DNA from: an uncultured Pseudomonadota bacterium
GTDB lineage: Bacteria > Pseudomonadota > Alphaproteobacteria > RF32 > CAG-239
DNA: 64,000 bases
Direction: 5' to 3'
Assembly (NCBI GenBank): GCA_902799835.1
Contig: CADCCF010000004.1
Coordinates: 150,032 to 214,031, forward strand
Shown: piece by piece, positions 805-35,116 of the stretch
Layout: each line of letters begins with the position of its first letter
Numbering within the stretch: position 1 is the first letter of the stretch
Position numbers and translations under genes: made by a program
The notes under the pieces: generated by a model
Databases searched by the model: none
The model's input: the letters and a program-made list of their open reading frames with translations, nothing else
Told to the model about the DNA's origin: nothing

Positions 805-977
805 CTTCATCTCCTTATAAAAACTTTCATCACTAAAATTTATACAACAATCATATCTCAAATTCCAAGCTCTTTTTTTTGCTGGTTTATAACTTGGCGC
901 GACACTTGACAGGCGGGCATAAAAACACTAGATATATATCAACTGAAACTTTTGATTATATATTTAAGGATAATACC

Positions 978-6206: not shown

Positions 6207-6215
6207 TTTGACCTC

Positions 6216-6710
6216 TTACTCAATTATCAGCAAAGACTCACCATATTCAACCGGATCACCCGACTCAACCAAAATTTTGGTAACAATACCAGAGCGATGG
6301 GCTTTAACCGGATTAAATGTCTTCATTGCCTCAATCAAACAAACGATATCACCTTCTTTAACCTTATCACCGACATTAACATAATCTGGTTTCGTCGGAT
6401 CCGGTGACAAATAAACCACACCGACAATTGGGGCTTTAACACTACCGGCATTATTCGAATAATCATCAATTGAAAAATCATTACTGTCTGTTGCTGTATT
6501 AGCTTTTGCAGTATTAACCGGCTGTATAGTTTGAAGCGGAGCAACTGTCTGAACCAAAGCTGAGCCGCTGTTGCTTTTTATACTTATACGGCATTTCTCG
6601 TCCTCATATTCCAATTCGCTCAAATTATTTTTGTTCAAAACTTCAGCCAGTTTATTTATAACTTTTGTATCAATTTGATTATTCATAACATTATCTTTCA
6701 AAAAAATCAC
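6216..6710 (-). CDS. accB: Biotin carboxyl carrier protein
   Basis: C-terminal biotinyl domain with EAMKT motif. Probable true start at MNNQID (6686). Confidence 0.9.
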   Translation of the reverse strand: MIFLKDNVMNNQIDTKVINKLAEVLNKNNLSELEYEDEKCRISIKSNSGSALVQTVAPLQTIQPVNTAKANTATDSNDFSIDDYSNNAGSVKAPIVGVVYLSPDPTKPDYVNVGDKVKEGDIVCLIEAMKTFNPVKAHRSGIVTKILVESGDPVEYGESLLIIE

Positions 6711-6848
6711 TCTTTTGTTAAAATATCATTTTTTGCAAAAAATACAACAAAAATTATGCATTTTTAGCATTTTTTATGCTTTTTTGCTCAAAAATGCAAT
6801 TTTCAAATTTTATTACTTTTGTGTCTTATTGTCGCTGTTTTTAAAATT

Positions 6849-6864
6849 TGGCACGCAACTTGCA
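6849..6864 (+). promoter_or_regulatory. Sigma-54 (-24/-12) promoter TGGCAC-N5-TTGCA upstream of fliK
   Basis: Exact match to TGGCAC gcaac TTGCA, about 40 nt upstream of the fliK ATG. Confidence 0.6.
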
Positions 6865-6903
6865 TATACTTCTGCAAGCTTAATTTTTTATAAGGCGAAA
6901 AAG

Positions 6904-8559
6904 ATGGAAATACAAGATAGAAACAGCATTATGCAACTTGCACTTAATTTCAACTTTGACAGTAAAAACTTGTCATCTGCCAGTGAGATTGGTTTTATTG
7001 ACATGATTAAAAATGTTCCGGTTGATAATAATGTTAAAGCATCTGCTTTTGATACTTCTAAAAATGCAGATTCTTTAGTTTCTGAAAAAAATAAAACTTC
7101 TCGTCCCTCCAACAAAAACAATAATGACTTTTCGGCAAACAAAACTCTCAAGAAAACTGCCACAAAGTCGTCAGATAAGGTTGAGAAAAAGACAGTAGAA
7201 CAAAACAACAAACAGGAAGTCACTACTGCTCCGGCTGCTGTAAACTCTTCGAACCCTCAAGATAATGTTCAAACACAACCTTCAACTGATGCAGCCTATG
7301 TTCAAGTTGAAAATGATGTCGAAAGCACTGGCGCTGAGGTCGCAACTGAAATTCCCGCCATAATCGAAAATGCTGAAACAATGGTTGCTGAAAATTTATG
7401 GGATTTAGGTAAAATATTTGATTTGCCTCAAATGTCTGTATCTCCGATAGAGCAAACTGAAGTTGTTACTGATGACACTGATATAATTACAGTCACTCCA
7501 GAAAATACAACTTCTGAAGATGCTACTGTTACTACCATTGTTGAAGATACCACATCTGCTAAAACCGTTCAGGTTGTTGAAAAAGTAACACCACAAACTG
7601 TGGCTATGAATTTAGATACCATTGAAGATACAACCGCTCATAAAGCCGCTTCTTCTCAGCAAAATGACAATCCGTTAAATATGCCCATTGACGAAAAGAG
7701 TGATTTGTTAATTCAGCAAGCTCAACATCTGGATACCAAAATCGGTACATCACACCATCTCAAAATTGATGTTAACGTCAATGAGGCAAAAATTGCCGCC
7801 CCTATCGAAAACAACATTTTGCAAAATTCATTTGCAATTACTTCCATGTTGCAAGGCGACAACATGTCTGACACCCCGATAAATGTTGAAAACTTTATTG
7901 AAGGTGAACAAATTCTAACCAACAACAATACTGTTCAAAACAATGCTGAAACCACACCATTGGCTGTCAATAATGTATTTGTTGCTGACATCTCCGGTCA
8001 AACCGCTTCTTTATCTGCCTCCGAAGATGTTGCTATGATAAATTCCATACAGCCTGTTGAATTGTCGGTCTCGCATCTGACACCCAAAAATGAATTATCT
8101 CCTCGCTTACAAGAGGTAAATGATGATGCCTCCCTGAAAGGTTTGGGCAAAGAGGTAATTGAACAAATCAAAGTCAATATCACCAAATCAGCTGTTAAAG
8201 GAGTTGATACTATCGATATTGAATTAAAGCCTGAAGAATTAGGCAAAGTACAAGTTCGCATGTATATCAGCAGAGATGGCAAACTGCATGCTGACATCAT
8301 AGCCTCAAGACAAGAAACCTCTGATTTGCTTCAACGCGAAGTTGAAAGTTTGAGCAAATCATTCCAAGATGCCGGCTATGATACTGACAAACAAAACTTT
8401 AATTTCAGCTCTCAGGAAGAACGTCAAGCCAATCACAACCGTGAAGAAAACAAATTTCAGCAGTTTATTGGTGAGACCTTGGCTCAAGAATCTGAACCGA
8501 CCGGAGTAAATGATAATCTGGCGTATGACCCCAAAGTCGGTCTTAACATCAGAGTATAG
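6904..8559 (+). CDS. fliK: Flagellar hook-length control protein FliK
   Basis: C-terminal FliK (Flg_hook) domain: LKPEELGKVQVRMYISRDGKLHADIIASRQETSDLL. Low-complexity T/S/Q-rich N-terminal region. The ORF-track start at 6715 is a non-coding AT-rich extension that contains the promoter. Confidence 0.65.
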   Translation: MEIQDRNSIMQLALNFNFDSKNLSSASEIGFIDMIKNVPVDNNVKASAFDTSKNADSLVSEKNKTSRPSNKNNNDFSANKTLKKTATKSSDKVEKKTVEQNNKQEVTTAPAAVNSSNPQDNVQTQPSTDAAYVQVENDVESTGAEVATEIPAIIENAETMVAENLWDLGKIFDLPQMSVSPIEQTEVVTDDTDIITVTPENTTSEDATVTTIVEDTTSAKTVQVVEKVTPQTVAMNLDTIEDTTAHKAASSQQNDNPLNMPIDEKSDLLIQQAQHLDTKIGTSHHLKIDVNVNEAKIAAPIENNILQNSFAITSMLQGDNMSDTPINVENFIEGEQILTNNNTVQNNAETTPLAVNNVFVADISGQTASLSASEDVAMINSIQPVELSVSHLTPKNELSPRLQEVNDDASLKGLGKEVIEQIKVNITKSAVKGVDTIDIELKPEELGKVQVRMYISRDGKLHADIIASRQETSDLLQREVESLSKSFQDAGYDTDKQNFNFSSQEERQANHNREENKFQQFIGETLAQESEPTGVNDNLAYDPKVGLNIRV

Positions 8560-8577
8560 TTATAAGGAGATTAAGCC

Positions 8578-9315
8578 ATGACAGATTTAACTTCCATCAT
8601 CAATTCCGTCAACACTTCAGCCACCAAAACCGGTGCTGCCAGCCAGACCTTGTCGGCGGATATGAACACTTTTTTGACCATGCTGACCACTCAGTTGCAA
8701 TATCAAGATCCGCTTGATCCGATGGATGCCACTGAATACACTAATCAACTGGTACAATATTCTAATGTTGAACAAGCCATTCAAACCAACACCAAATTGG
8801 ATCAGCTTTTGAGCCTGTCTATCCACAATCTCGGTGTTCAAGCTACCGGTTATGTAGGTCAGACCGTTCAAGTCTTGGGTGATGTTATGCCTTTGGCCAA
8901 TGGCGCCGCCAAAGCAACCTATACTTTGGGACAAAATGTTGAAAGCACATCTATCTTGGTTAAAGACCTTGACGGAAACACTGTTTACACTACTACCGGT
9001 GATACCTCAAGCGGAACCCACGATTTTGTGTGGAACGGCAAAGACAATTTCGGCAATCAGCTTCCGGATGGAGCTTATCAAATTGCTATTATGCCGCAGG
9101 CTTTATCCGGCCAAGCTGCGCCGACCGTAACTACCACGGTTTATGGCAAAGTTACCGGTGTCGCCAGTGATGAAAACGGAATTTATATTGGTCTTGGCGA
9201 TGCCACAACCACAACTTTAGATAACATTTTAACATCCCGCGGCTCAAGCTATTGGGATGAAATAATCGCAAGCGCTCAAGGAAATGGTAGCGCATTAAAT
9301 GACGAGAACGCTTAA
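8578..9315 (+). CDS. flgD: Flagellar hook capping/assembly protein FlgD
   Basis: FlgD N-terminal motif: FLTMLTTQLQYQDPLDPMDATEYTNQLVQYSNVEQ. Confidence 0.85.
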   Translation: MTDLTSIINSVNTSATKTGAASQTLSADMNTFLTMLTTQLQYQDPLDPMDATEYTNQLVQYSNVEQAIQTNTKLDQLLSLSIHNLGVQATGYVGQTVQVLGDVMPLANGAAKATYTLGQNVESTSILVKDLDGNTVYTTTGDTSSGTHDFVWNGKDNFGNQLPDGAYQIAIMPQALSGQAAPTVTTTVYGKVTGVASDENGIYIGLGDATTTTLDNILTSRGSSYWDEIIASAQGNGSALNDENA

Positions 9316-9339
9316 CCTTTTAGTTTTAGGAGAAAGAAC

Positions 9340-11601
9340 ATGAGTATTTTAGGTGCATTACAAGCTGGTGTTTCGGGATTATCTTCCCAATCCAGCGCCA
9401 TGGGAGCGGTAGCTGACAACATCGCTAACATGAACACTGTTGGTTACAAAGACAACAACGTGTCATTTTCGACACTGGTAACCAAACAAATTTCGTCAAA
9501 CAAATATTCCTCCGGCGGTGTCCAACCACATGCCAGCCAGAACATCAGCTCGCAAGGCTTGTTGTCTTCTGTTGCATCCAACACTTCGTTGGCGATTTCC
9601 GGAGCAGGTTTCTTCGTAGTTAACTCTTCCAATCTTGGTGACGAGACTTGGGCCTACACCCGTGCCGGCGATTTCAAAGCTGACGAAACCGGTTATATGG
9701 TAAACTCCGGTGGTTATTATGCTCAGGCTTGGTCATTATTGCCTTGGGATGGTACAACTACCGCAGCAACTGTTGATATCAATGGCATTATGTATATGAA
9801 AGCTTACAAAAACGATGCCGGTCAAACCGTCTATATCAATGACAACATTGTCGACAAAACCAACTTGCGCGGTATTGACTTATCCAAAATCGGCGGTACC
9901 GCTACACCGACAACTCAAATTGCTTTCGGTGCTAACTTACCGTCATCAACCCGCATCGGTGACACTCACTCGGTATCAACTCTTGTGTATGACAGTTTAG
10001 GTAATCCGGCCAATGTAAGCTTAAACTATCAGAAGGCTTCGGCCAACTCATGGGATTTGAACACTTCTGTTCCATCCGGAGCTGCCGCCGTAAATCTTTA
10101 CAATAAAGATCAACAAGTTTATGCTTCTGCGGCTCACATGGAATTTTCCGATGTTCCTTCCGAGGGTTCAACCATTAAAATCGGAACCACCACATTTACT
10201 TTCACATCTTCGCCTTCAGGCACTGATACTACGGAAGTTGATATTTCATCCAACGAGCTTTCAACCGTATTGAAAAACTTCCTTGCTGCCGTTCAGGCTA
10301 ACATCCGTGACGGTGGAAGATTTTCTATCGACAAAGGTGCTATTGAGGTAAATCAAAGCTTGACCGGTGAAGAATTGCAATTTGATTGCAGCAAGTGCTT
10401 GGCTTGTGTTCAATCCTCTGCTGATATCAATCAGTCAACCGGATTGCCCACCGGAACTTTCACTTTGAAAGCTATTGACAACAACCTGCGCAACGCAGCT
10501 TACATCGATGTCACCAGCCTTGCCAGTGGCAATAGCCTGACCATTAATGGCACAGCTTTTGTTTTCACCGATCAGGCCAACAGAACCTCTTCTGCTTTGA
10601 CAACTGCCTCCGGAACAATTGCTGCCGGTACTGAGATCTTTTATCTCAACGGGCAATACATTGCTGAAGATGATAGTGGTAGTTGGTATGATATCTCCGA
10701 TCTGTCATCGGCCATTGCTGATGTCAGCGCCAAAAAACCTTTTGCCAGTGTCGGAGAACCCACCGGTGATTTCACTCAAGACGTCAAAAACTTGGCTGTT
10801 GCGATTGCCAAATCTGATATTGCCGAACCGGAACGCTTTGTTGCCAGTGGTTCAACTTTAGAGATTATTCCTTCATCAACCGGTGAGGACATCAACATCT
10901 CGGATATCACTTTCGGCAATACCAGCAACTATATCCAAGGTGGTTCATCTTTGAGCATTACCACCCCGATTACCAGCAAATTTACCTCAATCAATGATGG
11001 CATTGAACATTTGGGTAGTTCGGTTCCGGCGGTTATGTTCAATTCTGACGGTACACCTAAAACCATCAATATCAACGACATGGAAATCTATTGGGCTAAT
11101 GGTGCTCAAGATATGACCGGTAATGTTGCTGATGGTGATGGTGTCAAAATTACTCTTAACATGGGTAACGAAAACACTTCCTCCGGTTTGACCAGCTTGT
11201 CCGGCAACTTCAACACCTCATACATCAACCAAGATGGTGCTACTTTCGGTAACTATACCGGAGTTACTGTCAGTGATGATGGTATTGTAACCGCCGTATT
11301 CTCAAATGGTGAAACTCAACCGATTGCCATCATACCTTTGGCCATGTTCACCAATGCTGATGGTATGGAAGCCTTAAACAACAATGTTTGGATTGCCACA
11401 ACGGCTTCAGGCACTCCGCTATTAACTCAGGCCACCTCCGGCGGTTCGGGCGAAATAGCTTCCAGTGCTTTGGAAAGCTCAACCGTTGATTTGGCCAATG
11501 AGTTCTCCAACATGATTATTGTTCAAAGAGCTTATTCAGCTGCCGGTAAGATTATTACCACCGCTGATGAAATGTTGCAGGAGCTGACATCGCTCATCTA
11601 A
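9340..11601 (+). CDS. flgE: Flagellar hook protein FlgE (long form, 753 aa)
   Basis: N-terminal rod/hook motif SGLSSQSSAMGAVADNIANMNTVGYK. C-terminal STVDLANEFSNMIIVQRAYSA. Large central insertion domain. Confidence 0.85.
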   Translation: MSILGALQAGVSGLSSQSSAMGAVADNIANMNTVGYKDNNVSFSTLVTKQISSNKYSSGGVQPHASQNISSQGLLSSVASNTSLAISGAGFFVVNSSNLGDETWAYTRAGDFKADETGYMVNSGGYYAQAWSLLPWDGTTTAATVDINGIMYMKAYKNDAGQTVYINDNIVDKTNLRGIDLSKIGGTATPTTQIAFGANLPSSTRIGDTHSVSTLVYDSLGNPANVSLNYQKASANSWDLNTSVPSGAAAVNLYNKDQQVYASAAHMEFSDVPSEGSTIKIGTTTFTFTSSPSGTDTTEVDISSNELSTVLKNFLAAVQANIRDGGRFSIDKGAIEVNQSLTGEELQFDCSKCLACVQSSADINQSTGLPTGTFTLKAIDNNLRNAAYIDVTSLASGNSLTINGTAFVFTDQANRTSSALTTASGTIAAGTEIFYLNGQYIAEDDSGSWYDISDLSSAIADVSAKKPFASVGEPTGDFTQDVKNLAVAIAKSDIAEPERFVASGSTLEIIPSSTGEDINISDITFGNTSNYIQGGSSLSITTPITSKFTSINDGIEHLGSSVPAVMFNSDGTPKTININDMEIYWANGAQDMTGNVADGDGVKITLNMGNENTSSGLTSLSGNFNTSYINQDGATFGNYTGVTVSDDGIVTAVFSNGETQPIAIIPLAMFTNADGMEALNNNVWIATTASGTPLLTQATSGGSGEIASSALESSTVDLANEFSNMIIVQRAYSAAGKIITTADEMLQELTSLI

Positions 11602-11630
11602 TTATTATCAAATCTTTTCCCTAAAACTGA

Positions 11631-11670
11631 AAAACCCCGTATGTTTGAAGAAATCAAACAACGGGGTTTT
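11631..11670. terminator. Bidirectional rho-independent terminator
   Basis: AAAACCCCGT...ACGGGGTTTT hairpin flanked by A and T runs, between convergent flgE and the SPFH gene. Confidence 0.6.
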
Positions 11671-11677
11671 AACATTT

Positions 11678-12373
11678 CTAGAGTTCATGCAAACCTTGGT
11701 CAACCACCTCTTCTAATGTCGGATAGTGGGATTTTTTGCCGGATTTTGCACTAGGTTGTGGAGCTTTTTCACCTTCAATCTGTTTTTGTAGATTGGCGAC
11801 ATAGGTTTTGCCATAAGCGTCTTGGATTTCAACTATCTCAAAATCATTCAACTCAACTCCTAGTCTTGTAAAGTCGGAGCGTTTTTCAAGCATGGCATCC
11901 TTTTTGATGACTTCACTGATGCCGGACTTGATCAGATCTTTCAGCTTCATTTCAAGACAGGCATTGCATGCAACCATTTTGACATATGATTCCAACAGCG
12001 CCATAGTGTCATGTTTGAACAGCTCCTCACTATCATTAAGGAAGAAAAATGCTTCCACCTTAACTTTAATTTTGACTAATGATGAACCGAACTGACTTAA
12101 GACAAAACAGTCGTCAACTGCCACCTTAAATCTGTTATCATCCCCTTGCAGAACGATAATCTGATCATCCGGGTAACGCAAATATCGGTTACTCAGTTCA
12201 CGCTGACCATACCAATAGATGGAACCATCACGACGAACCAAATGTGTCTCGCCATCCGGCACCGTAACTTCATAGCCAACCGGCTTTTTTCGTTTTTTAT
12301 CGGCACTATAAATTGCCAACACAATGAACATAACAATAGCCACGCAAGCTATTACTAAAATCGTTGTTCCCAT
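11678..12373 (-). CDS. Membrane-anchored SPFH (band 7/flotillin-like) domain protein, short native paralog
   Basis: N-terminal transmembrane segment, then an SPFH-like core that aligns with the N-terminal half of the adjacent flotillin. AT-rich like the host genome. Start taken at MGTTILV (12373); the upstream ORF-track extension overlaps the next gene. Confidence 0.55.
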   Translation of the reverse strand: MGTTILVIACVAIVMFIVLAIYSADKKRKKPVGYEVTVPDGETHLVRRDGSIYWYGQRELSNRYLRYPDDQIIVLQGDDNRFKVAVDDCFVLSQFGSSLVKIKVKVEAFFFLNDSEELFKHDTMALLESYVKMVACNACLEMKLKDLIKSGISEVIKKDAMLEKRSDFTRLGVELNDFEIVEIQDAYGKTYVANLQKQIEGEKAPQPSAKSGKKSHYPTLEEVVDQGLHEL

Positions 12374-12461
12374 AATAAATATTTTTGGATTAATAAATAA
12401 ATTAATGATAAAATTTGCTGTTATGATAACAATCAGTGCTTTTTTGTCAAGTTTAAATACC

Positions 12462-12498
12462 AAAAAACCGCTCTCTCTGAAAAGAGAGAACGGTTTTT
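12462..12498. repeat. 37-bp palindromic hairpin repeat, copy A (AAAAAACCGCTCTCTCTGAAAAGAGAGAACGGTTTTT)
   Basis: Identical to copy B at 14364..14401. Terminator-like hairpin with A and T flanks. Confidence 0.8.
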
Positions 12499-12515
12499 GT
12501 TGAGGAAATAAAGGT

Positions 12516-14078
12516 TTATTCCTCAGAAGGCTTCGGAGCTTCGGGTTTGGGAGCCTCGGGCTCAGACTTCGGGGTCGGAGCTTGTGCCTGCGGCTTTCCT
12601 TTTCCCAGCGAGGAAAGGAAACCGACAATGGCGGACACAGCGTCCTGACCGGCCTTGGTACCCGTGAAGGCCTCGAGAGCAGTTCCCAGAGCCAGACCTC
12701 CCTGAGCAGAGAACAGATCCATGACCTTGCTTACGCTGCCCTGGATACCCTCACCTGCACCGGAAATGATGCGGATGTTGGATCCATCGAGGTTCTTGGC
12801 CTGCTCAACACCGACGGCTTCACCGGCCTCAAGTTGACGGATGCCGAGAAGGTACCTCTGGTATCCCTCATTGGAGCCGATCTGCTCAGCCAGAGCGATG
12901 TCGCCGGCGACCTGAGCTTTGCGCATTTTTTCCTCGGCACCGGCCTTGGCTTCACCTTCGGCCTCGATACCCTTGGCGTTGTTAGTAGCCTGTGTCAGGT
13001 TACCTTCAGACACCAATTCAATACGCTTTTTCTCGGCCTCGGCTTGGAGTTCGACCTCCTTCTGCGCGGCCTCGGCGTTGATCACAGTCTTCTTACGAGC
13101 GGCTTCGGCGTCGATCTCCGTCTTTTGCTGGGCGGCTTCGGCGTCGATCTTGATCTTGTCTTTGTCGATCTCAGCCTTGCGGACGGTCTCCACCTGAATG
13201 ACATCCATTTCCTTCGTTTTGGTGGTCTTTTTCTCGTCCTGCACGGCCTGGTCGGCCTTCTGTTTGGCGACGCCAACCTCTTGCTCAACCTGCGCCTTTC
13301 TCATTCCGACCGTCTGGTCAGCGGCGGCTTGCTTCAGGTCGATCTCCTGCTGAGAAGCAATCTCCGCTTCCTTCGCCTCCTGCATATTCTTGGCGACGGT
13401 GACGCGTGACTCCTTCTCGATGACGGATTTCTTTTTCTTCATGATGTTGGCGATAACTTCCTCGCCGCTGGCATCACGGATGTCCATCAGCTCGATAGAC
13501 TTGACAGGTTCAACACCCCAAGCCTTGAGCTGCTCACTGACTTCGTCAGTGAAAACCTTGCCGTATTTGGAGCGTTCGCCCATAATGCTCTCCAAGTCCT
13601 CCTTAGCGAGGATGGTACGGGCGGCACCACGGCAGATGTCGAGGAGTTGCTCGCGAAGTTCTTTGTCACTTTCCACGCGCTCGGCCGCCATCTTAAAGTC
13701 ACAGATCCGGAAGAAGGCTTTCACATCAACCACAAAGGGCAAGCGATCCTTGTCATAGGCGTCGTATCCTTTGATGTCGATGTCGAAAACCGCCAGAGAC
13801 AGTCGCGATATTGTGACACCGATTGCCGGCACCCATTCGGGCCAACGGTAGTAGGCATTGCCGCTCACCTCGTTGCCTTCCGGGATACTGGCTGATGCGC
13901 CGTAAATCAGGGTTTTTTTGCCTTGGCGCACAATGTGCACCTCGTTCGGCGACACCACAGTTCGCAGGCTGAACACCCAGCGCAACATCAGAAACAGAAC
14001 AACTGCTACCAAAACTGCTACGCCAATCCAAATATAAGTCATAACGCTCATATATTTATTTTTTTTTATTAGCTGCAA
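12516..14078 (-). CDS. Flotillin (SPFH domain plus coiled-coil EA-repeat region); GC-rich, probably horizontally acquired
   Basis: N-terminal membrane anchor and SPFH domain. Repeated IDAEAAQQK coiled-coil flotillin region. PE/PK-rich tail. GC near 60% with GCC/CTG/GAG codons, unlike neighbouring genes. Confidence 0.8.
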   Translation of the reverse strand: MQLIKKNKYMSVMTYIWIGVAVLVAVVLFLMLRWVFSLRTVVSPNEVHIVRQGKKTLIYGASASIPEGNEVSGNAYYRWPEWVPAIGVTISRLSLAVFDIDIKGYDAYDKDRLPFVVDVKAFFRICDFKMAAERVESDKELREQLLDICRGAARTILAKEDLESIMGERSKYGKVFTDEVSEQLKAWGVEPVKSIELMDIRDASGEEVIANIMKKKKSVIEKESRVTVAKNMQEAKEAEIASQQEIDLKQAAADQTVGMRKAQVEQEVGVAKQKADQAVQDEKKTTKTKEMDVIQVETVRKAEIDKDKIKIDAEAAQQKTEIDAEAARKKTVINAEAAQKEVELQAEAEKKRIELVSEGNLTQATNNAKGIEAEGEAKAGAEEKMRKAQVAGDIALAEQIGSNEGYQRYLLGIRQLEAGEAVGVEQAKNLDGSNIRIISGAGEGIQGSVSKVMDLFSAQGGLALGTALEAFTGTKAGQDAVSAIVGFLSSLGKGKPQAQAPTPKSEPEAPKPEAPKPSEE

Positions 14079-14363
14079 ACAAACTTCCTAGCTTACTTTA
14101 TGTCTCATCATTAAAATATCGAAGTTTTACTTTGGTCCCTAGGGCGCGTAGCTCTAAACTGTAAACAACAGCGGGCGGCTCGTGGATTAACAAGCTCTTT
14201 ACTTCCATAATTTTAAGACTACCGACATATTTCTAACTAACAAATTCATCTGCACCTTTTGTTAATAATTCTCTTAATCCCTATAAACAATAACACTATA
14301 CCACTTTTTGCCTACCCTGTCAAGCGGGTTTTATACAAAATTTTAAAAAATATACTAAAATAT

Positions 14364-14401
14364 AAAAAACCGCTCTCTCTGAAAAGAGAGAACGGTTTTT
14401 T
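14364..14401. repeat. 37-bp palindromic hairpin repeat, copy B
   Basis: Identical to 12462..12498. Together the two copies bracket the GC-rich flotillin segment. Confidence 0.8.
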
Positions 14402-14425
14402 CAAGCTTTCGACTCGCTATCTTTT

Positions 14426-14737
14426 TTAGAAAGCGTTCTTGAGATTATCCAAACTCTTTTTCATATTCTCAACGGCTTTTTCATCTTCGGCTTTTTTGGC
14501 TTCGGCAGCATCATCAGCCTCTGCCTTTTTGGCTTCTACTTGAGCTTTGGTTTCTTCAACTTTAGCCTTAGCCTCATCAACTTGAGCATTAACTCCGGCC
14601 TTAGATTCTTCAACTTTTACAGCCAAATCATCAGCAGCTTTTGCCACAGCATTAGCGGCAGCAGCGATATCTGTTTGAGCATTTGCCGCAAAGGCAACTG
14701 ATGTCAACAAAGTCGCAAGAGCGAATAACTTTTTCAT
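14426..14737 (-). CDS. Secreted Ala/Lys/Glu-rich helical protein (hypothetical)
   Basis: Signal peptide MKKLFALATLLTSVAFAANA, followed by low-complexity AKAEV repeats. Confidence 0.4.
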   Translation of the reverse strand: MKKLFALATLLTSVAFAANAQTDIAAAANAVAKAADDLAVKVEESKAGVNAQVDEAKAKVEETKAQVEAKKAEADDAAEAKKAEDEKAVENMKKSLDNLKNAF

Positions 14738-14854
14738 TTTATACATCTCCTCATAGATTGATTAAACACGACGCAGTGTAATCGCAATTTATTCTTATGA
14801 CAATCACAATAAAAATTTTCTCAACAAAAAACAAAAGGTCGGATTGCTCCGACC

Positions 14855-15271
14855 TTAATCAATGTCAATTTCAACTTCACCAAGGCGATAGCTTATATCC
14901 TCGCCAAGCATGGCTTGTAAATCTTCTTCAAAATCATGCCATTGCTCCAAAGGGTATCGCCACCCCTTTTCGATGATTATATCATCTATTGCCAGGTGGA
15001 TAGCTCTTAGTTGATTTGGGTTTGCATAGTAGGATATAACTACTTGCTTGACACTGTCACAATCAAAGTACACAAAGTCTTTGATTGTACTGTCAACCTC
15101 AAATGAGTAGTACCCTACTTGACCATAAGCCCCGAACTCCCAATCTTCCAGTGCCGGAGCTTCAATCGTTTGGTTGTCAACTGTATAGTCACCTTCCCGT
15201 AAAGCTGAATTTTTTTGATGATTACATGCGGCCAGTAAAAACAGTAGTGCCGCTAAGATCAATTTTTTCAT
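14855..15271 (-). CDS. Lipoprotein (hypothetical)
   Basis: Lipobox LLAAC after signal peptide MKKLILAALLF. Terminator hairpin downstream (14820-14850). Confidence 0.5.
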   Translation of the reverse strand: MKKLILAALLFLLAACNHQKNSALREGDYTVDNQTIEAPALEDWEFGAYGQVGYYSFEVDSTIKDFVYFDCDSVKQVVISYYANPNQLRAIHLAIDDIIIEKGWRYPLEQWHDFEEDLQAMLGEDISYRLGEVEIDID

Positions 15272-15447
15272 ATCTCAATAATTTTTTTGTACCTCAAATA
15301 TACTACTTTTACCTCTATCCGTCAACCATTTTTTAGACAAAAACATCTTTTTTGCAACTGTCAATATTTATTCTTTTTTACTGGATTTTGTTCAAGTTTG
15401 CTTATATATTGCGGGCAGACTAATTTTTTAACAAAAGGAAAATATAG

Positions 15448-18400
15448 ATGTCTGATGTAAAAATGAAAATGATGGACGGCAATGAGGCCGCCGCTTCTGT
15501 TGCTCACCGCATGAATGAGGTTTGCGTAATCTATCCGATTACTCCTTCTTCACCGATGGGCGAATGGGCTGATGCTTGGTCAGCTGCCAACCAAAAGAAC
15601 CTTTGGGGTGTTGTTCCCAATGTTCAAGAAATGCAATCTGAAGCCGGTGCCGCCGGTGCTTGCCATGGCTCTATTCAAGCCGGTGCTTTGACCACCACCT
15701 TTACCGCTTCGCAAGGCTTACTCTTGATGATACCCAATATGTACAAGATTGCCGGTGAATTAAGCCCGTTTGTTATGCATGTTGCCGCACGCTCTTTGTC
15801 ATATCACGCCTTGTCGATTTTCGGCGATCACTCAGATGTTATGGCTTGTCGTCAAACCGGTTTTGCCATGCTCTGCTCCAACTCAGTACAAGAAGCTCAC
15901 GATATGGCCGCCATTGCTCAAACTTCGACTTTGCGTTCGCGCGTTCCATTTATGCATTTCTTTGATGGTTTCCGTACATCTCACGAAATCAAAAAGATTA
16001 AATTGCTTTCCGATGACGATTTGCGCGCCATGTTAGAAGGTGTTGATTTCTCATTCAATGCTAAAAACGCTTTGCGTCCGGAAGCTCCGGTTTTGCGCGG
16101 TACTGCTCAAAACCCTGATGTTTTCTTCCAAGGTCGTGAAGCCGGCAACAAATTCTATGCTCAGGTAGAACGTATCGTTCAAGAAGAGATGGATAAGTTC
16201 GCCAAGATTTCGGGACGCAAATACAATGTTGTTGATTATTGCGGTGCCCCCGATGCCGAACAAGTTATCGTAATCATGGGTTCCGGTGCCGAAACCGTTG
16301 AAGAAACCATCGAATATTTGAACAATAACGGCTACAAAGTCGGTTTGATGAAAGTTCATCTGTATCGTCCTTTCCCGGAGAAGTCTTTCTTAAAGGCTTT
16401 GCCTAAGTCGGTTAAAGTTGTCAACGTTCTTGACAGAACCAAGGAATCCGGCTCTATCGGTGAACCTTTGTATTTGGATGTTGTTGCTACCTTGAGCCAA
16501 GCTTTTGCTAAAGGCGAGATTGCTTTCTGCCCGCGCATCTATGGCGGTCGTTATGGCTTGTCATCCAAAGAATTTACTCCGGGTATGGTTCGCGCCGTTT
16601 ATGACAATGGTGCCAGCATGAACCCGATTAACAGTTTCTCTGTTGGTATCAATGATGATGTTAACAATACTTCTTTACCTTATTCTGATGATATTGACAC
16701 CGAAGGCAAAGATGTTGTTCGCGCTGTATTTTATGGATTGGGTGCCGATGGTACGGTTGGTGCTAACAAAAACTCAATTAAGATTATTGCTGAAGATGCC
16801 GGCAAATATGGTCAAGGCTATTTTGTTTACGATTCTCGTAAATCAGGCTCTATGACCACTTCACACTTGCGTTTTTCCGATAATCCTATTCGTGCAGCTT
16901 ATCAAATTAACAAAGCTGACTTTGTTGCTTGTCACCAATTCCCGTTCATGGCTAAGGTTGATGTCTTGAAAATTGCCAAAAAGGGTGGCGTTTTCTTGCT
17001 CAACGCTCCTTATGCCGCTAATGAAGTTTGGGATCACTTAACCGCTGAAGTCCAACAAGAAATCATTGATAAAAAGTTGGAATTCTACACCATTAACGCG
17101 GTTGAAGTTGCTCGTGAAACCGGCATGGGACAACGCATTAACACTATTATGCAGGCTTGTTTCTTTGCCATTTCTAACATCTTGCCCAAAGATGAAGCTA
17201 TTGCCCAAATTAAGAATGCAATTAAGAAAACCTATTCTAAGAAGGGTGACGAGATTGTACAAAAGAACTATGCTGCGGTTGATGCTTCTTTGGCTCATAT
17301 GCACAAAGTTGATTATCCTAACGAGGTTACATCTAAACTGCATCGTTTGGCTCCGGTTCCGGCTAATGCTCCGGAATTCGTTCAAAAAGTTACTGCCGAA
17401 ATTATTGCCGACCGTGGTAATGAATTGCCGGTATCTGCTTTCAACGATGTTGTTGACGGAACTTGGCCGACCGGTACAACCAAATATGAAAAACGTTGTA
17501 TCGCTACCGAAATTCCGGTTTGGGATAATGAGACTTGTATCCAATGCGGCAAGTGCTCGATTGTTTGCCCGCATGGCGTTATCAGAATGAAGGTTGCATC
17601 AGATGAAGATTTGAAGAATGCCCCGGCTACCTTAAAATCTGCCGCTTATAAAGGTAAAGAATTTGAAGGCAAGAAATTTATTTTGCAAATTTCACCTGAA
17701 GATTGCACCGGATGCGGTATCTGCGTTTCGGCCTGCCCTGCCAAAAACAAGGCTAACCCCGAATTGCACGCTATCAATATGGATCATATTGAAAATCACT
17801 TGGAAGCTGAAAAAGCCAACTGGAACTTCTTTGAGACTTTGCCTTATGTAAAGCGCACCGAAGTTTCCAAGAATTTGCCCAAGACCACCCAAATGATTCA
17901 ACCTTTGTTTGAGTTCTCGGGTGCTTGCGCCGGCTGCGGTGAGACTCCTTACATCAAATTGCTCACCCAGTTGTTTGGTGATCGTATGATGGTTGCCAAT
18001 GCTACCGGTTGTACTTCCATTTATTCCGGCAACTTGCCGACCACGCCTTATGCCAAGGACGAAAAAGGTCATGGTCCGGCTTGGTCAAACTCTTTGTTTG
18101 AAGACAATGCCGAATTTGGTTTGGGTATGCGTTTCTCGGTTGACCAGCAAACTTCTTTTGCCAAAGCCTTGCTTGAAGGTTTGAAAGACAAAGTTGGTGC
18201 TGATTTGGCTGATAAATTGTTGAACAACCCGCAAAAGACCGATGCTGAGATTGATGAACAACGCGATTTGGTAGCTCAGTTGCGCACCAAACTCTCCGGC
18301 ATCAAATCTGATGAAGCCAAACATCTCGATAAATTGGCTGATTATCTGATTAAGAAGTCAGTTTGGATTATCGGCGGTGACGGTTGGGCTTATGATATCG

Positions 18401-19008
18401 GTTTCGGCGGTTTGGATCACGCTATTGCATCGGGTAAAAACATCAACATCTTGGTACTTGATACCGGCGTTTATTCCAACACCGGCGGTCAACAATCCAA
18501 GGCTACCCCGATGGGTGCTTCGGCCAAATTTGCCACAGCCGGTAAATCTTTGCCTAAGAAAGATTTGGGCATGATTGCCATGTCTTATGGCAATGTTTAT
18601 GTTGCTCAAGTTTCAATGGGAGCTAACGATAGCCAAGTTATCAAAGCTATGAACGAAGCTGAGGCTTATGATGGACCTTCTATCATTATTGCCTATGCTC
18701 ACTGTATTGCTCAAGGCTTCAACCTGGCTGATGGTTTGACTCACCAAAAAGCCGCTGTTGAAACCGGATCTTGGCCGTTGTATCGATATAATCCGGAGAA
18801 TATTAAAGAGGGTAAAGCTCCTTTGACATTGGATTCAAAGGCTCCTTCCCGTCCGTTGTCTGACTATATGGCTAATGAAACTCGTTTCCAAGTAGTCAAC
18901 AAACAGAATCCGGAACGTTACACAACCTTGCTCAACAAGGCTCAAGAGAATGTTAAGGAAAAACGTTCTCTCTTAGAACATATGTCCGAGTTCAAAGTAG
19001 CTGAATAA
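15448..19008 (+). CDS. nifJ: Pyruvate:ferredoxin (flavodoxin) oxidoreductase, PFOR/NifJ
   Basis: 1186 aa. Two 4Fe-4S ferredoxin motifs (CIQCGKCSIVCP, CTGCGICVSACP). TPP-binding GGDGWAYDIGFGGLDH. Ribosome-binding site AAAGGAAA. Confidence 0.9.
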   Translation: MSDVKMKMMDGNEAAASVAHRMNEVCVIYPITPSSPMGEWADAWSAANQKNLWGVVPNVQEMQSEAGAAGACHGSIQAGALTTTFTASQGLLLMIPNMYKIAGELSPFVMHVAARSLSYHALSIFGDHSDVMACRQTGFAMLCSNSVQEAHDMAAIAQTSTLRSRVPFMHFFDGFRTSHEIKKIKLLSDDDLRAMLEGVDFSFNAKNALRPEAPVLRGTAQNPDVFFQGREAGNKFYAQVERIVQEEMDKFAKISGRKYNVVDYCGAPDAEQVIVIMGSGAETVEETIEYLNNNGYKVGLMKVHLYRPFPEKSFLKALPKSVKVVNVLDRTKESGSIGEPLYLDVVATLSQAFAKGEIAFCPRIYGGRYGLSSKEFTPGMVRAVYDNGASMNPINSFSVGINDDVNNTSLPYSDDIDTEGKDVVRAVFYGLGADGTVGANKNSIKIIAEDAGKYGQGYFVYDSRKSGSMTTSHLRFSDNPIRAAYQINKADFVACHQFPFMAKVDVLKIAKKGGVFLLNAPYAANEVWDHLTAEVQQEIIDKKLEFYTINAVEVARETGMGQRINTIMQACFFAISNILPKDEAIAQIKNAIKKTYSKKGDEIVQKNYAAVDASLAHMHKVDYPNEVTSKLHRLAPVPANAPEFVQKVTAEIIADRGNELPVSAFNDVVDGTWPTGTTKYEKRCIATEIPVWDNETCIQCGKCSIVCPHGVIRMKVASDEDLKNAPATLKSAAYKGKEFEGKKFILQISPEDCTGCGICVSACPAKNKANPELHAINMDHIENHLEAEKANWNFFETLPYVKRTEVSKNLPKTTQMIQPLFEFSGACAGCGETPYIKLLTQLFGDRMMVANATGCTSIYSGNLPTTPYAKDEKGHGPAWSNSLFEDNAEFGLGMRFSVDQQTSFAKALLEGLKDKVGADLADKLLNNPQKTDAEIDEQRDLVAQLRTKLSGIKSDEAKHLDKLADYLIKKSVWIIGGDGWAYDIGFGGLDHAIASGKNINILVLDTGVYSNTGGQQSKATPMGASAKFATAGKSLPKKDLGMIAMSYGNVYVAQVSMGANDSQVIKAMNEAEAYDGPSIIIAYAHCIAQGFNLADGLTHQKAAVETGSWPLYRYNPENIKEGKAPLTLDSKAPSRPLSDYMANETRFQVVNKQNPERYTTLLNKAQENVKEKRSLLEHMSEFKVAE

Positions 19009-19024
19009 TATTTCAGCTTAACCT

Positions 19025-19060
19025 TAAAAAAACCTCAAGTCTTCGGACTTGAGGTTTTTT
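19025..19060 (+). terminator. Rho-independent terminator after nifJ
   Basis: AAAAAAACCTCAAGTCTTCGGACTTGAGGTTTTTT. Confidence 0.7.
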
Positions 19061-19120
19061 ATTGACAAAATATTGTTTTCGTCTAAGATACAAGCAGAAA
19101 AAAATTAAAAAAATATAATT

Positions 19121-19786
19121 ATGGATGACAATTGCTTAAAAAATGTGTCAAGTCAATGCTGGTTTTGCTCATACAATGAAGCGGCCAAAAGTCTTGGTCT
19201 AGATTCACCTATTCGTTTGGGGCACCTGGATGTAGAGGGAAAGCATGAGTATTTTTGGTATAATAATGACAGTTGCGCTCCGGTTTTTCGCAATACTGAC
19301 TTGCGTATAATAGTTTTTATGCGCTTCTTACCATTAACGCAAATTCTTCCCGGCAGCTTTTTTCCTCGTGGAAGCAAAATTTATTACTATGATGATGAAA
19401 ATTTGACAATTTATCAAATTGCTAATTTTCTCAACATTGAAACTGTAAGAATTTTTGCCAATTTATCGAACTTAAGAGCTAAGCAGGCATACCCTGCAAC
19501 CATAAAGGCTAAGAACGGTAACGATATTCCCATCTGGATGCTGGAACCGCTGATTGAAGAAGGCGAAGAATGGAAAGCATCGCAACAGCCCGTCAAATAC
19601 ATCAACATCTTTGAAGAAGATGAAGAATATGATTTGTCAGCGATAACACCGCAACAAATTAAGATATTGGGCAAAGGTGATTATGTTATTCATGGCGAAG
19701 ATCTTTATCAAGTTGAACTAAACCCGCTTTATGGATTAGGCTTGACCAAACAAGAAATTGACATTGATTCCCTGCTTAAAAGTTAA
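19121..19786 (+). CDS. Hypothetical protein, no recognisable domain (221 aa)
   Basis: Long ORF with host-like AT-rich composition. Cys-rich N-terminus (CWFCSYNE). Confidence 0.4.
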   Translation: MDDNCLKNVSSQCWFCSYNEAAKSLGLDSPIRLGHLDVEGKHEYFWYNNDSCAPVFRNTDLRIIVFMRFLPLTQILPGSFFPRGSKIYYYDDENLTIYQIANFLNIETVRIFANLSNLRAKQAYPATIKAKNGNDIPIWMLEPLIEEGEEWKASQQPVKYINIFEEDEEYDLSAITPQQIKILGKGDYVIHGEDLYQVELNPLYGLGLTKQEIDIDSLLKS

Positions 19787-19873
19787 GCCGGGAATTTTTT
19801 TATTTGACTTTTTATATTTTTTGTCTAGTATTAAATGCACAAAAAATTACTTACAAATTAAAAACCAACAAAG

Positions 19874-20524
19874 ATGAAGAAAGAATTTTTAAAGGTGGCC
19901 AGTGATATTTGTATCGCCGCCACAGCCGAAAAAGCTGCAGAGCTCATGAGTTGCCCGGTCGATGAGATTGCTTTTGCCAGAGCAATCAACAACCAGAAAA
20001 TCGGTTTTTGCTGGGTTAAAATCGGAGCTGACAAAAAGCCCTTGAGCTATCAACCCTCTTTCGAAAATAACATCTTCGAAGAGGATTGTAAAATTAGCAA
20101 ACTAAGGCTGAGAACGATCAGCAAAGACACTTACTTTGTCAAGGATGGCAACTTCTGCTATTATAATCAGCAGGAAAAAGTCATCTTTAAGGTGGATGTC
20201 ATTTCGTCGGGGCGAGTGGCTACTGAAAGAGCCCTTTTAGCCGGAATTGCGGCGCAGACTGTGTCCCTCGCCAACATCAAAAAGAAAGGTGTTGTCGGCA
20301 AACCCTCTCCACTTTATGTGTGGGTAGTAAGAGACACTTTAGGAAGAAGTTCACTTTTTCCGGTGTTTGCCGAAGATGCTCACCGTCTGGTGGACGACAG
20401 TGGCAATCCTTTGCCCAAAAACATTTTAGAGGCTCATTATCTTGAGCAAGGGCAAAGTGTGCGAAAGCACGGCGAGCTCTATCCAGTTATGTTAGACCCG
20501 GTCAAAGGATTCTATCTAACCTGA
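19874..20524 (+). CDS. Hypothetical protein, no recognisable domain (216 aa), moderately raised GC
   Basis: Long ORF followed by a strong terminator. No family recognised. Confidence 0.4.
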   Translation: MKKEFLKVASDICIAATAEKAAELMSCPVDEIAFARAINNQKIGFCWVKIGADKKPLSYQPSFENNIFEEDCKISKLRLRTISKDTYFVKDGNFCYYNQQEKVIFKVDVISSGRVATERALLAGIAAQTVSLANIKKKGVVGKPSPLYVWVVRDTLGRSSLFPVFAEDAHRLVDDSGNPLPKNILEAHYLEQGQSVRKHGELYPVMLDPVKGFYLT

Positions 20525-20526
20525 TC

Positions 20527-20563
20527 TAAAAAACTCCTCAAGCAAATGCTTGAGGAGTTTTTT
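20527..20563. terminator. Bidirectional terminator between convergent ORFs
   Basis: AAAAAACTCCTCAAGCAAATGCTTGAGGAGTTTTTT. A second hairpin CCCTCTTGCCTTTCGGTTTGAGGG lies at 20571-20606. Confidence 0.7.
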
Positions 20564-20620
20564 AAAACACCAAACCCTCTTGCCTTTCGGTTTGAGGGTT
20601 TTTGTGTTTATGCCTTTTTT

Positions 20621-21307
20621 TTATTTTTTAATCCAATCTTTTAACCAAGCCGGCACAACAGGCTTGGTCAAAATCTTGTCGCCCAATCGGCTCCACCCCC
20701 CTGTGTATGAGGATGAGAGCAATTGCGATGCCTGGTAGGCAGCCAATGCCATCTTGATGCCGCGCTTGCCCTTCACATAGAAGGTATTATCAGCATAGTA
20801 AGCATCAATTTGCGGGCAGCTCTCTACCAAGCACTGAGCTGTCAGCAACGGAAAGTCGCTAAACACCAGCACTTTGGGCTTCTCATGTCCGGCCTCACGC
20901 GGATAGCGTTCCTTCAGAGCATCTGCCGCCTTCTCCACCAATCTAATGGTACGGCGAACAGCCTCCGGCTCATGGCTGGTTTGTTCCTCGAAAGAAACCA
21001 CCACAGGTAACACATCGGGAACCGCCGCCTGATTGCGCCTCACAATCTCGCCATCGTGGCTGATGAAGAGGACAATGTCCGGTGTCTCTTCCCCCAAATC
21101 CATCGAAGACTTGGTGTACAAGTCTTTTCTGTCAATGAGAGTGGGATAAAAACCCTTATTGCCCACATAGTTGATGGCATAACCATCTCCCCTTCCCAGC
21201 CATCGGGCAATACGATGGGCTATGGCGTATGCCGCCTTGTTGGCGTTGTTGTTCTTGGCATTCTTGTTCTTGCCATTGTTCTTCTGATTTTTGTTCTTGT
21301 TTGCCAT
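20621..21307 (-). CDS. Hypothetical protein with Lys/Asn-rich low-complexity N-terminus (228 aa), GC-elevated
   Basis: N-terminus MANKNKNQKNNGKNKNAKNNNANK, then a globular domain of unknown family. About 50% GC, against roughly 36% for the surrounding genome. Confidence 0.4.
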   Translation of the reverse strand: MANKNKNQKNNGKNKNAKNNNANKAAYAIAHRIARWLGRGDGYAINYVGNKGFYPTLIDRKDLYTKSSMDLGEETPDIVLFISHDGEIVRRNQAAVPDVLPVVVSFEEQTSHEPEAVRRTIRLVEKAADALKERYPREAGHEKPKVLVFSDFPLLTAQCLVESCPQIDAYYADNTFYVKGKRGIKMALAAYQASQLLSSSYTGGWSRLGDKILTKPVVPAWLKDWIKK

Positions 21308-21431
21308 AATTTTATTTTTTTATAATTATACTTTGAATTAATTCTTATTTTTGATACTCAAAAATATATCATATTTTTTAGACAAAAACAACACATTTTT
21401 TACAAAAAAGCAAAAAAAATCTTTCATCCCC

Positions 21432-21538
21432 AAAAACTGCGAAGAATAGTGTAGATAAAGCGATTTTTAGGGGCGATAAAAATTTTAGTGTAGTAAAGCC
21501 TACATGAATTTTTATCGTCCCCGTAAAATTGCTTTAGA
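21432..21538. repeat. Dispersed hairpin element, copy 1 (leader AAAACTGCGAAgAATAGTGTAGATAA plus nested inverted repeats)
   Basis: Shares the conserved leader with 29042..29133, where the stems differ but stay base-paired. Confidence 0.5.
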
Positions 21539-21557
21539 TGCGCTGTTATACGCAGTT

Positions 21558-22685: not shown

Positions 22686-22687
22686 AT

Positions 22688-34953: not shown

Positions 34954-35116
34954 AGCAATTCCTTCTACATCTTAAGAGGTTGCAAAGATTAATATAACAG
35001 ATGCTATCAATATCGTAAATATCCACTTTTTTGATATGTGTTCATAATTCTTTATTTTAACACCTATAAGTTGCAAAAACTTATTTGTCAACATAATCCA
35101 AACTACCACTGATAAA

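Follow-up and report, generated by a model that had tools for sequence, protein, structure and literature searches.

A GC-rich flotillin-like gene between two identical terminator-like hairpins is probably an old, recombining resident of its locus in an uncultured ruminant-gut alphaproteobacterium

The subject of this analysis is a flotillin-like gene, together with the two identical hairpin sequences that bracket it, in a 64-kb stretch of DNA (the window) from an uncultured alphaproteobacterium. The coding sequence (CDS) is on the minus strand and spans either 12516..14051 with an ATG start (511 aa) or 12516..14078 with a TTG start (520 aa). The 520-aa TTG form is the one present in the public protein collection, and the 511-aa form had no exact match. 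An earlier note on this DNA had regarded the gene as recently acquired cargo, inserted at or mobilised with the hairpins. We compared the locus with related loci, which are denoted below by L numbers. The homologues are named "Alphaproteobacteria bacterium" metagenome-assembled genomes (MAGs), and the related loci come from ruminant gut or rumen metagenomes (RUG10873, XIEF21 assemblies, and GCA_017516405.1). All of the relatives compared are metagenome assemblies, and the window proteins also occur on a public contig of 848 kb. The comparison points to a gene that has probably long been resident at its site, whose alleles are exchanged between species and which is occasionally deleted.

The hairpin sequence, AAAAAACCGCTCTCTCTGAAAAGAGAGAACGGTTTTT, is present as two exact 37-nt copies at 12462-12498 and 14364-14400, and no further copy with three or fewer mismatches was found in the 64-kb window, where the chance expectation is 0. 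The identity of the two hairpins, as claimed in the earlier note, was confirmed; the end given there, 14401, takes in one extra T of the T-run. Both copies were also found at 100% identity, with the whole flotillin unit, in L019, an independent public assembly; therefore, the pair is not an assembly artefact of the window. Each copy folds into a stem of 16–17 bp with a 4-nt loop, with free energies of −22.7 and −24.1 kcal/mol and z scores of approximately −6.3 and −6.5. The minus-strand stem is perfect with one G.U pair, and the plus-strand stem has a C.A mismatch. Copy 2 (T1; 14364..14401, minus strand) has a 17-pair stem, a 4-nt loop, and a U-tract and is located 25 nt past the stop codon of a small upstream gene (gene A). 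Copy 1 (T2; 12462..12498, minus strand) is a stem-loop with a U-tract located 17 nt past the flotillin stop codon. Both therefore have the structural features of intrinsic terminators, namely a stable stem-loop with a U6 tail just 3' of a stop codon on the coding strand. A hairpin is kept at both positions in the relatives, and in some of them it is a different one. On these sequence features, T1 and T2 are predicted to be the Rho-independent terminators of gene A and the flotillin gene, respectively.

Of the sigma-70-type promoter matches in 16 kb of scanned sequence, the two best lie 3' of T1 and T2, respectively. The flotillin promoter (14295..14323, minus strand) reads TTGACA-17-TATAGT with an extended −10 TG, matches 11 of the 12 consensus positions, and is conserved in L001 and L008. 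The promoter of the downstream gene, gene B (12423..12450, minus strand), reads TTGACA-16-TATCAT with a TG and also matches 11 of 12 positions. Gene A (14426..14746, minus strand), taken from the list of open reading frames (ORFs), encodes a small Ala/Lys/Glu-rich protein of 106 aa with a signal-like N-terminus and belongs to the upstream transcription unit ended by T1; it had no convincing family match in Pfam or NCBIfam. Gene B (11678..12373, minus strand) encodes a membrane-anchored, truncated SPFH-like paralogue of 231 aa, which is collinear with flotillin residues 33–206 (24% identity over 187 aa, E 1e-4) and has six homologues in the protein collection. Gene A, flotillin, and gene B are thus all on the minus strand, and the flotillin leader is approximately 237 nt long. 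The arrangement of terminators and promoters implies that they form three separate transcription units, each with its own predicted terminator and promoter.

The flotillin protein belongs to the SPFH/Band 7 superfamily. The Band_7 model (PF01145) matches residues 32–222 with 58.6 bits against a cut-off of 23.6 (E 1e-15). The human Flotillin-1 structures 9bq2/9l3g show weak similarity over residues 80–380 (E ~1e-7), and the NCBIfam FloT model aligns over residues 13–379. The protein is therefore of the flotillin type, with an SPFH domain and a coiled-coil region alignable to flotillins, and its homologues are named flotillin at JGI. Its score with the FloT equivalog model NF058507 is 44.5 bits against a cut-off of 700; therefore, it is not considered an orthologue of FloT and is called flotillin-like only. 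In a collection of 5.8 billion proteins, 1555 homologues were found, several of which are named flotillin or come from Alphaproteobacteria MAGs. PADLOC and PHROGs gave no usable match for flotillin, gene A, gene B, or a 228-aa gene described below. Like FloT/YuaG and FloA of Bacillus subtilis and eukaryotic Flotillin-1, the protein has an N-terminal membrane anchor, an SPFH/Band_7 domain, and a long coiled coil rich in Ala, Glu, Lys, and Gln, and a second, shorter SPFH protein (gene B) is encoded beside it. Unlike them, it has no NfeD partner gene, it has a family-specific structured leader, its score is far from the FloT cut-off, and it has homologues of 44% identity in large phages of Vibrio, Xanthomonas, and Brevundimonas. 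An ORF of 275 aa antisense to the gene (12582..13409) was set aside as a usual by-product of a GC-rich CDS.

The flotillin leader contains a conserved structured element (14089..14232, minus strand) that includes a GC-rich patch (CCGCCCGCTG ... GCGCCCTAGGGACC). An RNAalifold consensus of five leaders has 37 pairs, seven of which show compensatory changes, and a variable apical insertion; the minimum free energy has a z score of −2.6. The element has a 6-bp hairpin with the loop UAAUCC and two C-rich boxes, CCGCCCGCUG and GCGCCCUAGGGACC. The covariance model matched only upstream of flotillin genes, at eight loci that include another genus (L004/L005), and found nothing in L002, L006, or the flotillin-less loci. 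The corresponding elements in relatives are located at L001 5353-5535, L008 290-433, L009 28-189, and L004 431-555. Rfam searches in both the gathering and E-value modes gave nothing credible for the leader or the hairpins, all matches being far below the gathering scores; the Rfam scan of the window found two tRNAs, which lie elsewhere. The leader is thus a candidate new cis-regulatory RNA, which is probably structured. The GC-rich patch that the earlier note had placed at about 14135-14200 does exist, but it is the core of this conserved element, a native and probably regulatory sequence rather than foreign DNA.

The composition of the CDS is clearly atypical. Its GC content is 55.6%, compared with 39.4% for the window, and its GC content at third codon positions (GC3) is 66.6%, compared with a mean of 37.1% (standard deviation 6.3) for 51 other ORFs, an excess of about 4.7 standard deviations. 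The favoured codons are CTG, GAG, CAG, AAG, GAC, TAC, ATC, and GCC, and the avoided codons are GGG, CGG, AGG, CTA, TTA, and ATA. This usage is opposite to that of PFOR, FlgE, and the ribosomal proteins L10/L7-L12, whose codons we take as the host-optimal set and which prefer GTT, GCT, GGT, TTG, GAA, and CAA. Translational selection was rejected as the cause of the high GC3, because the genes of this set prefer GTT, GCT, TTG, GAA, and CAA. The foreign-looking composition and codon usage reported earlier are therefore real, and so is the contrast of a GC-rich CDS in low-GC DNA; the figures given for it, about 60% against the mid-30s, were too strong. The compositional jump does not coincide with the hairpins, as had been claimed, but with the limits of the CDS. 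Within the bracket, the 285 nt of promoter and leader (14079-14363) are AT-rich, homologous across alleles, and conserved in relatives, and on the 3' side the drop in GC content is at the stop codon, which is 17 nt from T2.

The flotillin gene occupies what appears to be a conserved slot, with PFOR, small genes, and gene A on one side and gene B and FlgE on the other. The neighbours identified are SecA, accB/accC, FliK, FlgD, FlgE, PFOR, and peptidases, together with several small ORFs without a family match. The outgroup L002 has the order PFOR, small ORF, flotillin, FlgE, FlgD, FliK, accB, and accC. Its GC content is 47% (flanks 45–49%), and its flotillin, 59% identical to that of the window at the amino acid level, has ambient composition, with a GC3 of 51% compared with 48–60% in the neighbours. 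The order gene A, T1, promoter, leader, flotillin, T2, promoter, and gene B is common to L001, L003, and L008, and flotillin is present at the slot in each of these sampled members of the genus. In a neighbor-joining tree of 61 family members, the window protein groups with its syntenic orthologues, and no distant donor clade was found. Thus, the donor sought by homology and phylogeny did not emerge, and the nearest flotillins are the syntenic orthologues themselves. The synteny of L002 with ambient GC content, taken together with a remnant of the gene in a sister species (see below), is the reason for regarding flotillin as probably ancestral at the PFOR–FlgE slot, an old resident rather than a newly inserted mobile cassette.

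A flotillin module with the same leader adjoins SecA, the homologue of window ORF 879-3701, in L004 (588-4582), where it is not next to FlgE; therefore, the module is not at the same locus in all lineages. No tblastn match to flotillin was found in a plasmid collection, and a protein scan of IMG/VR gave no relative. Homologues with approximately 44% identity at 94% coverage were found in 51 phage records (Vibrio phages of about 127 kb and Xanthomonas, Brevundimonas, Erwinia, and Ralstonia phages; for example, MT460514.1 76788-78137), and the eight top records listed annotate the product as a hypothetical protein. The phage homologues hint at a phage-host role that could drive the diversification and loss of flotillin.

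The flotillin site is NEVERTHELESS polymorphic, and two kinds of flotillin-less locus were found. In L007, which is the rumen MAG RUG10873, only a single hairpin lies between gene A and the promoter of gene B, with the promoter immediately after the hairpin. This clean empty site aligns to window positions 10781-12498 and 14364-19143 and is identical over 62 nt, the 37-nt hairpin, and 40 nt; the empty site with a single hairpin that the earlier note had proposed to look for in related genomes was thus found. Four independent assemblies (L012–L015, including GCA_017516405.1) lack flotillin in another way. In these, gene A and a hairpin T1' are followed by 22 nt from the promoter region of flotillin, by 92 nt that remain of its 3' end (the remnant), and then by a hairpin T2' and gene B. 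The remnant is 82% identical to the 3' end of the window gene, and its 16 differences include 12 GC>AT and 2 AT>GC changes, which shows AT-biased decay of unconstrained sequence in these bacteria. The remnant proves that flotillin was formerly present in the L012–L015 lineage and was deleted. The flanks of L013 and L007 are 95.6–96.5% identical; therefore, two different flotillin-less states exist in one species. Because of the decayed remnant, the absence of the gene in the sister species is a loss, and most simply the RUG10873 site is a loss as well. The clean single-hairpin allele would then most simply have arisen when T1 and T2 of a haplotype like that of the window recombined with each other.

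Two short contigs bear on this polymorphism. L019, a MEGAHIT contig built with k of 87, corresponds to window 14450..12412 and ends exactly 50 nt (87−37) outside each hairpin. Ends at this distance are expected only if filled and empty haplotypes co-occur; by the logic of the assembly graph, they suggest that a single-hairpin haplotype with the same flanks of ±50 nt is present in the same sample. L020, a Logan contig built with k of 31, corresponds to window 14393..12469 and contains the flotillin unit with a 30-nt terminal overlap (k−1). It was rejected as a circular molecule and is regarded as a pseudo-circle due to repeat collapse. The 37-bp repeat thus shapes the assembly graphs of both contigs.

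The hairpins themselves vary among the relatives. T2 is identical in the window and L001, and a different hairpin, T2', is found in L003, L008, and L013. A homologous but non-identical T1 is located at the same place in L001 and, different again (T1'), in L008 and L013. T1 of L001 has the 17-nt 5' arm in common with T2 and differs at six positions, all of which preserve pairing. T1 and T2 thus differ in L001 and are dissimilar in L008, and they are identical only in the window haplotype and L019, where T1 carries the T2-type loop. This identity may be due to gene conversion, to an imported haplotype, or to re-acquisition of the unit at a site with a single terminator. An origin of the two hairpins by tandem duplication through gene B was rejected because the terminator that follows gene B is not related to them. 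When one genome per GTDB species was scanned (185,579 representatives), the hairpin gave one match, at the same locus of RUG10873, whose whole assembly contains one copy, and JGI metagenomes gave one chance match only, in a contig of 75% GC. A dispersed palindromic repeat of the REP, MITE, or CREE type was therefore rejected, as the hairpin is found only at this locus, with two copies in 64 kb and one match among 185,579 representatives. The earlier note had proposed a search for more copies flanking other foreign cargo; none was found in the DNA covered, and the hairpin is not a ubiquitous REP. Of the circumstances that the earlier note had set against its own proposal, the same gene at the same locus with comparable GC content in relatives was found; a non-polymorphic site and a ubiquitous hairpin were not.

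The 3.5-kb stretch between PFOR and FlgE is hypervariable and mosaic. Positions 12534..13805 of the CDS (minus strand) differ from L001 by four mismatches over 1272 nt. This tract of 1.27 kb is 99.7% identical, compared with 87% for PFOR and 78.5% for FlgE, and ahead of its sharp breakpoint near 13805 a third-position difference occurs every few codons. The region 14531-14859 (gene A) is also 99–100% identical to L001, and gene A is only 50–82% identical to that of the closer relative L007. The leader, a 138-aa lipoprotein-like gene (14855-15271, minus strand), and gene B are only approximately 40–50% identical to their positional counterparts in L001 at the nucleotide level. Compared with L003, the leader is 97–99% identical, the 5' end of gene B is 93–99% identical, the CDS is 60–92% identical (69% at the amino acid level), and T2 is different. 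In L007, sequence of the window type is confined to a stretch of about 140 nt with the hairpin at its centre. Within 3 kb, there are thus no fewer than five or six segments that differ in ancestry. The earlier idea of a recent movement is accordingly correct in one respect, in that the greater part of the CDS was recently transferred between species (1.27 kb at 99.7% identity, compared with 78–87% in the flanks); the idea of a recently acquired gene is not, given the orthologues at the same slot in L002, L001, L003, and L008 and the remnant in L013. Allele and content differences that conflict with the divergence of the flanks are characteristic of recombination hot spots. The slot is apparently an interspecies recombination hot spot, for which homologous allelic replacement would suffice without dedicated machinery.

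The best overall explanation, to which we assign a probability of about 0.7, is that a resident flotillin module with terminator hairpins undergoes allele exchange and occasional deletion. In this explanation, a module of a sigma-70-type promoter, a structured leader of approximately 237 nt, an SPFH CDS, and a terminator would be resident in a low-GC alphaproteobacterium of the ruminant gut. T1 and T2 would have become identical in this genome by gene conversion or through an imported haplotype. Flotillin alleles, comprising the CDS and the terminator, have been replaced between species by homologous recombination, as the tract shared with L001 shows. The gene was also lost on at least one occasion, through an internal deletion of which a decaying remnant is left. 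Once identical, the 37-bp direct repeats would be a substrate for precise deletion, giving the single-hairpin allele of RUG10873, and this allele probably segregates within populations. The hairpins would then matter as terminators and accidental deletion substrates, not as the ends of a mobile element; their proposed role as such ends was not borne out, because they have the features of ordinary terminators and are merely similar in L001 and different in L008.

Several points weigh against this explanation. A Campbell-type insertion at a single terminator would give the same picture as the RUG10873 site, so that deletion there cannot be proven, and L007 comes from a metagenome bin. The hairpin search of the window's own genome covered 64 kb. 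The codon usage of flotillin, opposite to the host-optimal set, is like that of an import. The L008 allele shows GC>AT decay, with GC>AT to AT>GC ratios of 32:14 and 26:11, as expected of an import undergoing amelioration. On the window branch, the polarised synonymous changes (GC>AT to AT>GC) number 21:21, 16:21, 18:22, and 22:35, with no net GC>AT decay, a result in favour of the explanation; a point against it is that this parsimony polarisation is based on few sequences with long branches.

The GC anomaly requires its own explanation. All flotillin alleles of the genus have a GC3 of 57–67% despite up to 33% protein divergence, in flanks of 31–40% GC, and the GC boundary follows the CDS in every allele. 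In L004, which belongs to another genus with a more AT-rich genome, flotillin has a GC3 of 37% compared with 21% in the neighbours, and 65% of its Lys, Glu, and Gln codons end in G compared with 7–18% in the neighbours. In every allele of the genus, the high GC content thus belongs to the coding sequence, and it is not the mark of a recent insertion bounded by hairpins. The proportion K/(K+R) of the window protein is 0.69, the same as the family median, and the protein is Lys-rich like the whole family; therefore, long residence in a very GC-rich donor was rejected. A second single-gene GC island is located at 20621..21307 (minus strand). It encodes a 228-aa orphan with 50% GC and a GC3 of 61%, which is restricted to the genus, has only eight homologues in the collection of 5.8 billion proteins, and had no match in Pfam, NCBIfam, PADLOC, or PHROG. 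It is syntenic in a sister species (L018 4001-4696), with a GC3 of 58% compared with 33–49% in the neighbours, and its nucleotide identity of 75–87% is at or under the local background, so that it appears to be inherited vertically and yet retains its GC3 excess. The alleles of the genus and the orphan show that high GC3 can persist in resident genes of these bacteria.

We tentatively ascribe the anomaly to a gene-specific process that favours GC, namely GC-biased gene conversion at the hot spot, selection on synonymous sites, or both. GC-biased gene conversion is attractive because flotillin demonstrably recombines. In a published survey of 14 bacterial groups (Lassalle et al. 2015, PMC4450053), GC3 was higher in recombining than in non-recombining genes in 11 of them, mainly owing to GC-ending codons that are non-optimal. 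To that extent, flotillin resembles the genes described there, being a recombining gene whose GC3 is raised through GC-ending codons that are non-optimal in the host. It differs in that the AT-rich leader and terminator beside the CDS are unaffected. A further point against such a process is that the GC3 differences seen in bacterial groups are reportedly only a few points, and the flotillin excess of approximately 30 points is far larger.

A somewhat less probable alternative is that GC-rich alleles arrive by homologous replacement from unsampled, GC-richer relatives of the same clade and spread among low-GC species faster than they ameliorate. Such import would account for codons opposite to the host-optimal TTG, GAA, CAA, GTT, and GCT and for the excess of GC>AT changes in the L008 allele; allele transfer between species is demonstrated, related genomes with higher GC content exist (L002, 47%), and the occurrence of family members in phages indicates that the family is mobile in general. 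However, no donor was found among 5.8 billion proteins, and the closest relatives other than identical ones show 69% identity and also have AT-rich flanks. The flotillin of L002 has a GC3 of only 51% and prefers AAA. Moreover, the GC boundary tracks the CDS in every allele, synonymous change in the window lineage is balanced or biased towards AT>GC, the amino acid composition is that of low-GC genomes, and the vertically inherited 228-aa orphan has the same persistent GC3 excess.

We also considered, as an unlikely possibility, that the flotillin module is a self-contained unit that is often exchanged and lost in ruminant-gut Alphaproteobacteria, that its GC-rich synonymous sites are actively maintained in AT-rich genomes, through unusually strong GC-biased gene conversion at a recombination hot spot or through selection connected with expression control by the leader, and that phages may drive its diversification or loss.

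A recent arrival of a foreign flotillin cassette, by insertion at the hairpin or by mobilisation together with it, is improbable. It would have involved site-specific or Campbell-type recombination of a circle of promoter, leader, flotillin, and terminator at a pre-existing single terminator, with duplication of the hairpin. It would readily explain the identical direct repeats, the perfect single-hairpin empty site of RUG10873, and the atypical composition, and re-insertion at a single hairpin of the T2 type would give the window T1 its T2-type loop, in place of the T1 type of L001. It is contradicted by the fact that the outgroup L002 and all sampled members of the genus have flotillin in this slot, by the remnant in the sister species, which proves prior presence, and by the differences between T1 and T2 in L001 and L008. 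The 285 nt of bracketed promoter and leader sequence are rich in AT and have homologous counterparts in the other alleles, and the 37-nt hairpin lacks core sites of the attC type and has no copies elsewhere among the 185,579 representatives and the JGI metagenomes. No gene of this family was found on plasmids or in IMG/VR. A Pfam scan of ORFs (those in 4866-24109, SecA at 879-3701, and nine more out to 36160) revealed neither a transposase nor an integrase, in agreement with the earlier note, which had seen none. A transposon or genomic island was likewise rejected, as no recombinase was found in the ORFs scanned between 879 and 36160 and the unit consists of a promoter, leader, CDS, and terminator only. 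That the empty sites are unreal, because the 37-bp repeat caused assemblers to bypass the flotillin unit or to loop it out, is highly improbable: L020 is pseudo-circular and L019 ends k−37 from the hairpins, but the diverged remnant and non-identical T1' and T2' of L012–L015 are impossible by repeat collapse and are the same in four assemblies, the switch points of L007, as read from the sequence, have only about 16 nt in common with the other haplotypes, which is too short for chimeric joining at the usual k, and the final k of the usual metagenome assemblers exceeds the 37 nt of the repeat.

Among known systems, the locus would best be likened to a variable slot of the minimal-mobile-element type combined with deletion between direct repeats, and not to an integron cassette, a REP or MITE, or a transposon. 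The "minimal mobile elements" of Neisseria (Saunders & Snyder 2002, cited in PMC1538595; PMC3082526) are similar in having a short variable segment between conserved flanking genes, content or alleles that vary among strains or species, no mobility genes, and homologous recombination in the flanks. The flotillin slot differs from them in that it holds alleles or the absence of one gene rather than unrelated genes, and in that breakpoints are also found inside the CDS. Deletion between short direct repeats, whether RecA-dependent or by slipped-strand events at repeated REP or terminator sequences, is similar in the identical 37-bp repeats 1.9 kb apart, the relative with one copy, and the intact outer flanks. 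Here, however, the repeats are the terminators of neighbouring genes rather than dispersed elements, and the event would be a reconstructed one. An integron gene cassette (an ORF with attC) also consists of a single ORF followed by an imperfect palindrome, its presence or absence leaves one palindrome, and a circular intermediate would be conceivable here. In contrast to such cassettes, the flotillin unit has its own promoter and 237-nt leader, its hairpins act as predicted terminators, there is no IntI or attI, and the 37-nt hairpin has no R''/R' core sites. A cassette of this kind was therefore rejected, since attC sites are 57 nt or longer, the hairpin contains neither RYYYAAC nor GTTRRRY, the promoter is strong and its own, and no integrase was found. 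REP/BIME, Correia (CREE), and MITE-like repeats are also terminator-like intergenic palindromes in more than one copy, but the flotillin hairpin is confined to a single locus and has no terminal inverted repeats or target duplications.

Two other features were observed outside the flotillin locus. An N6/N4 DNA methyltransferase gene (34171-34953) adjoins a 347-aa ORF (35117-36160) on the minus strand (34171-36160 in all), with 32% GC and a GC3 of 22%. The 347-aa ORF had no Pfam match, and the two may be a restriction-modification pair of foreign, low-GC origin. In a sister species, PFOR is called as two ORFs (569 and 604 aa) on one ruminant metagenome contig (L016 6314-8696), possibly because of a frameshift, a pseudogene, or an assembly error.

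The locus illustrates how misleading such a signature may be. A GC-rich gene, identical hairpins, and an empty site together look like a cassette, and yet they are most simply explained by an old resident gene, terminators, and deletion. Neighbouring terminators can become identical and may then serve as deletion substrates. In uncultured bacteria of the rumen, a single housekeeping-type gene for a membrane scaffold can apparently be a hot spot of recombination between species. Moreover, resident genes of an AT-rich genome can retain an atypical GC3, which bears on the use of composition as a detector of horizontal gene transfer and on the debate about GC-biased gene conversion in bacteria.

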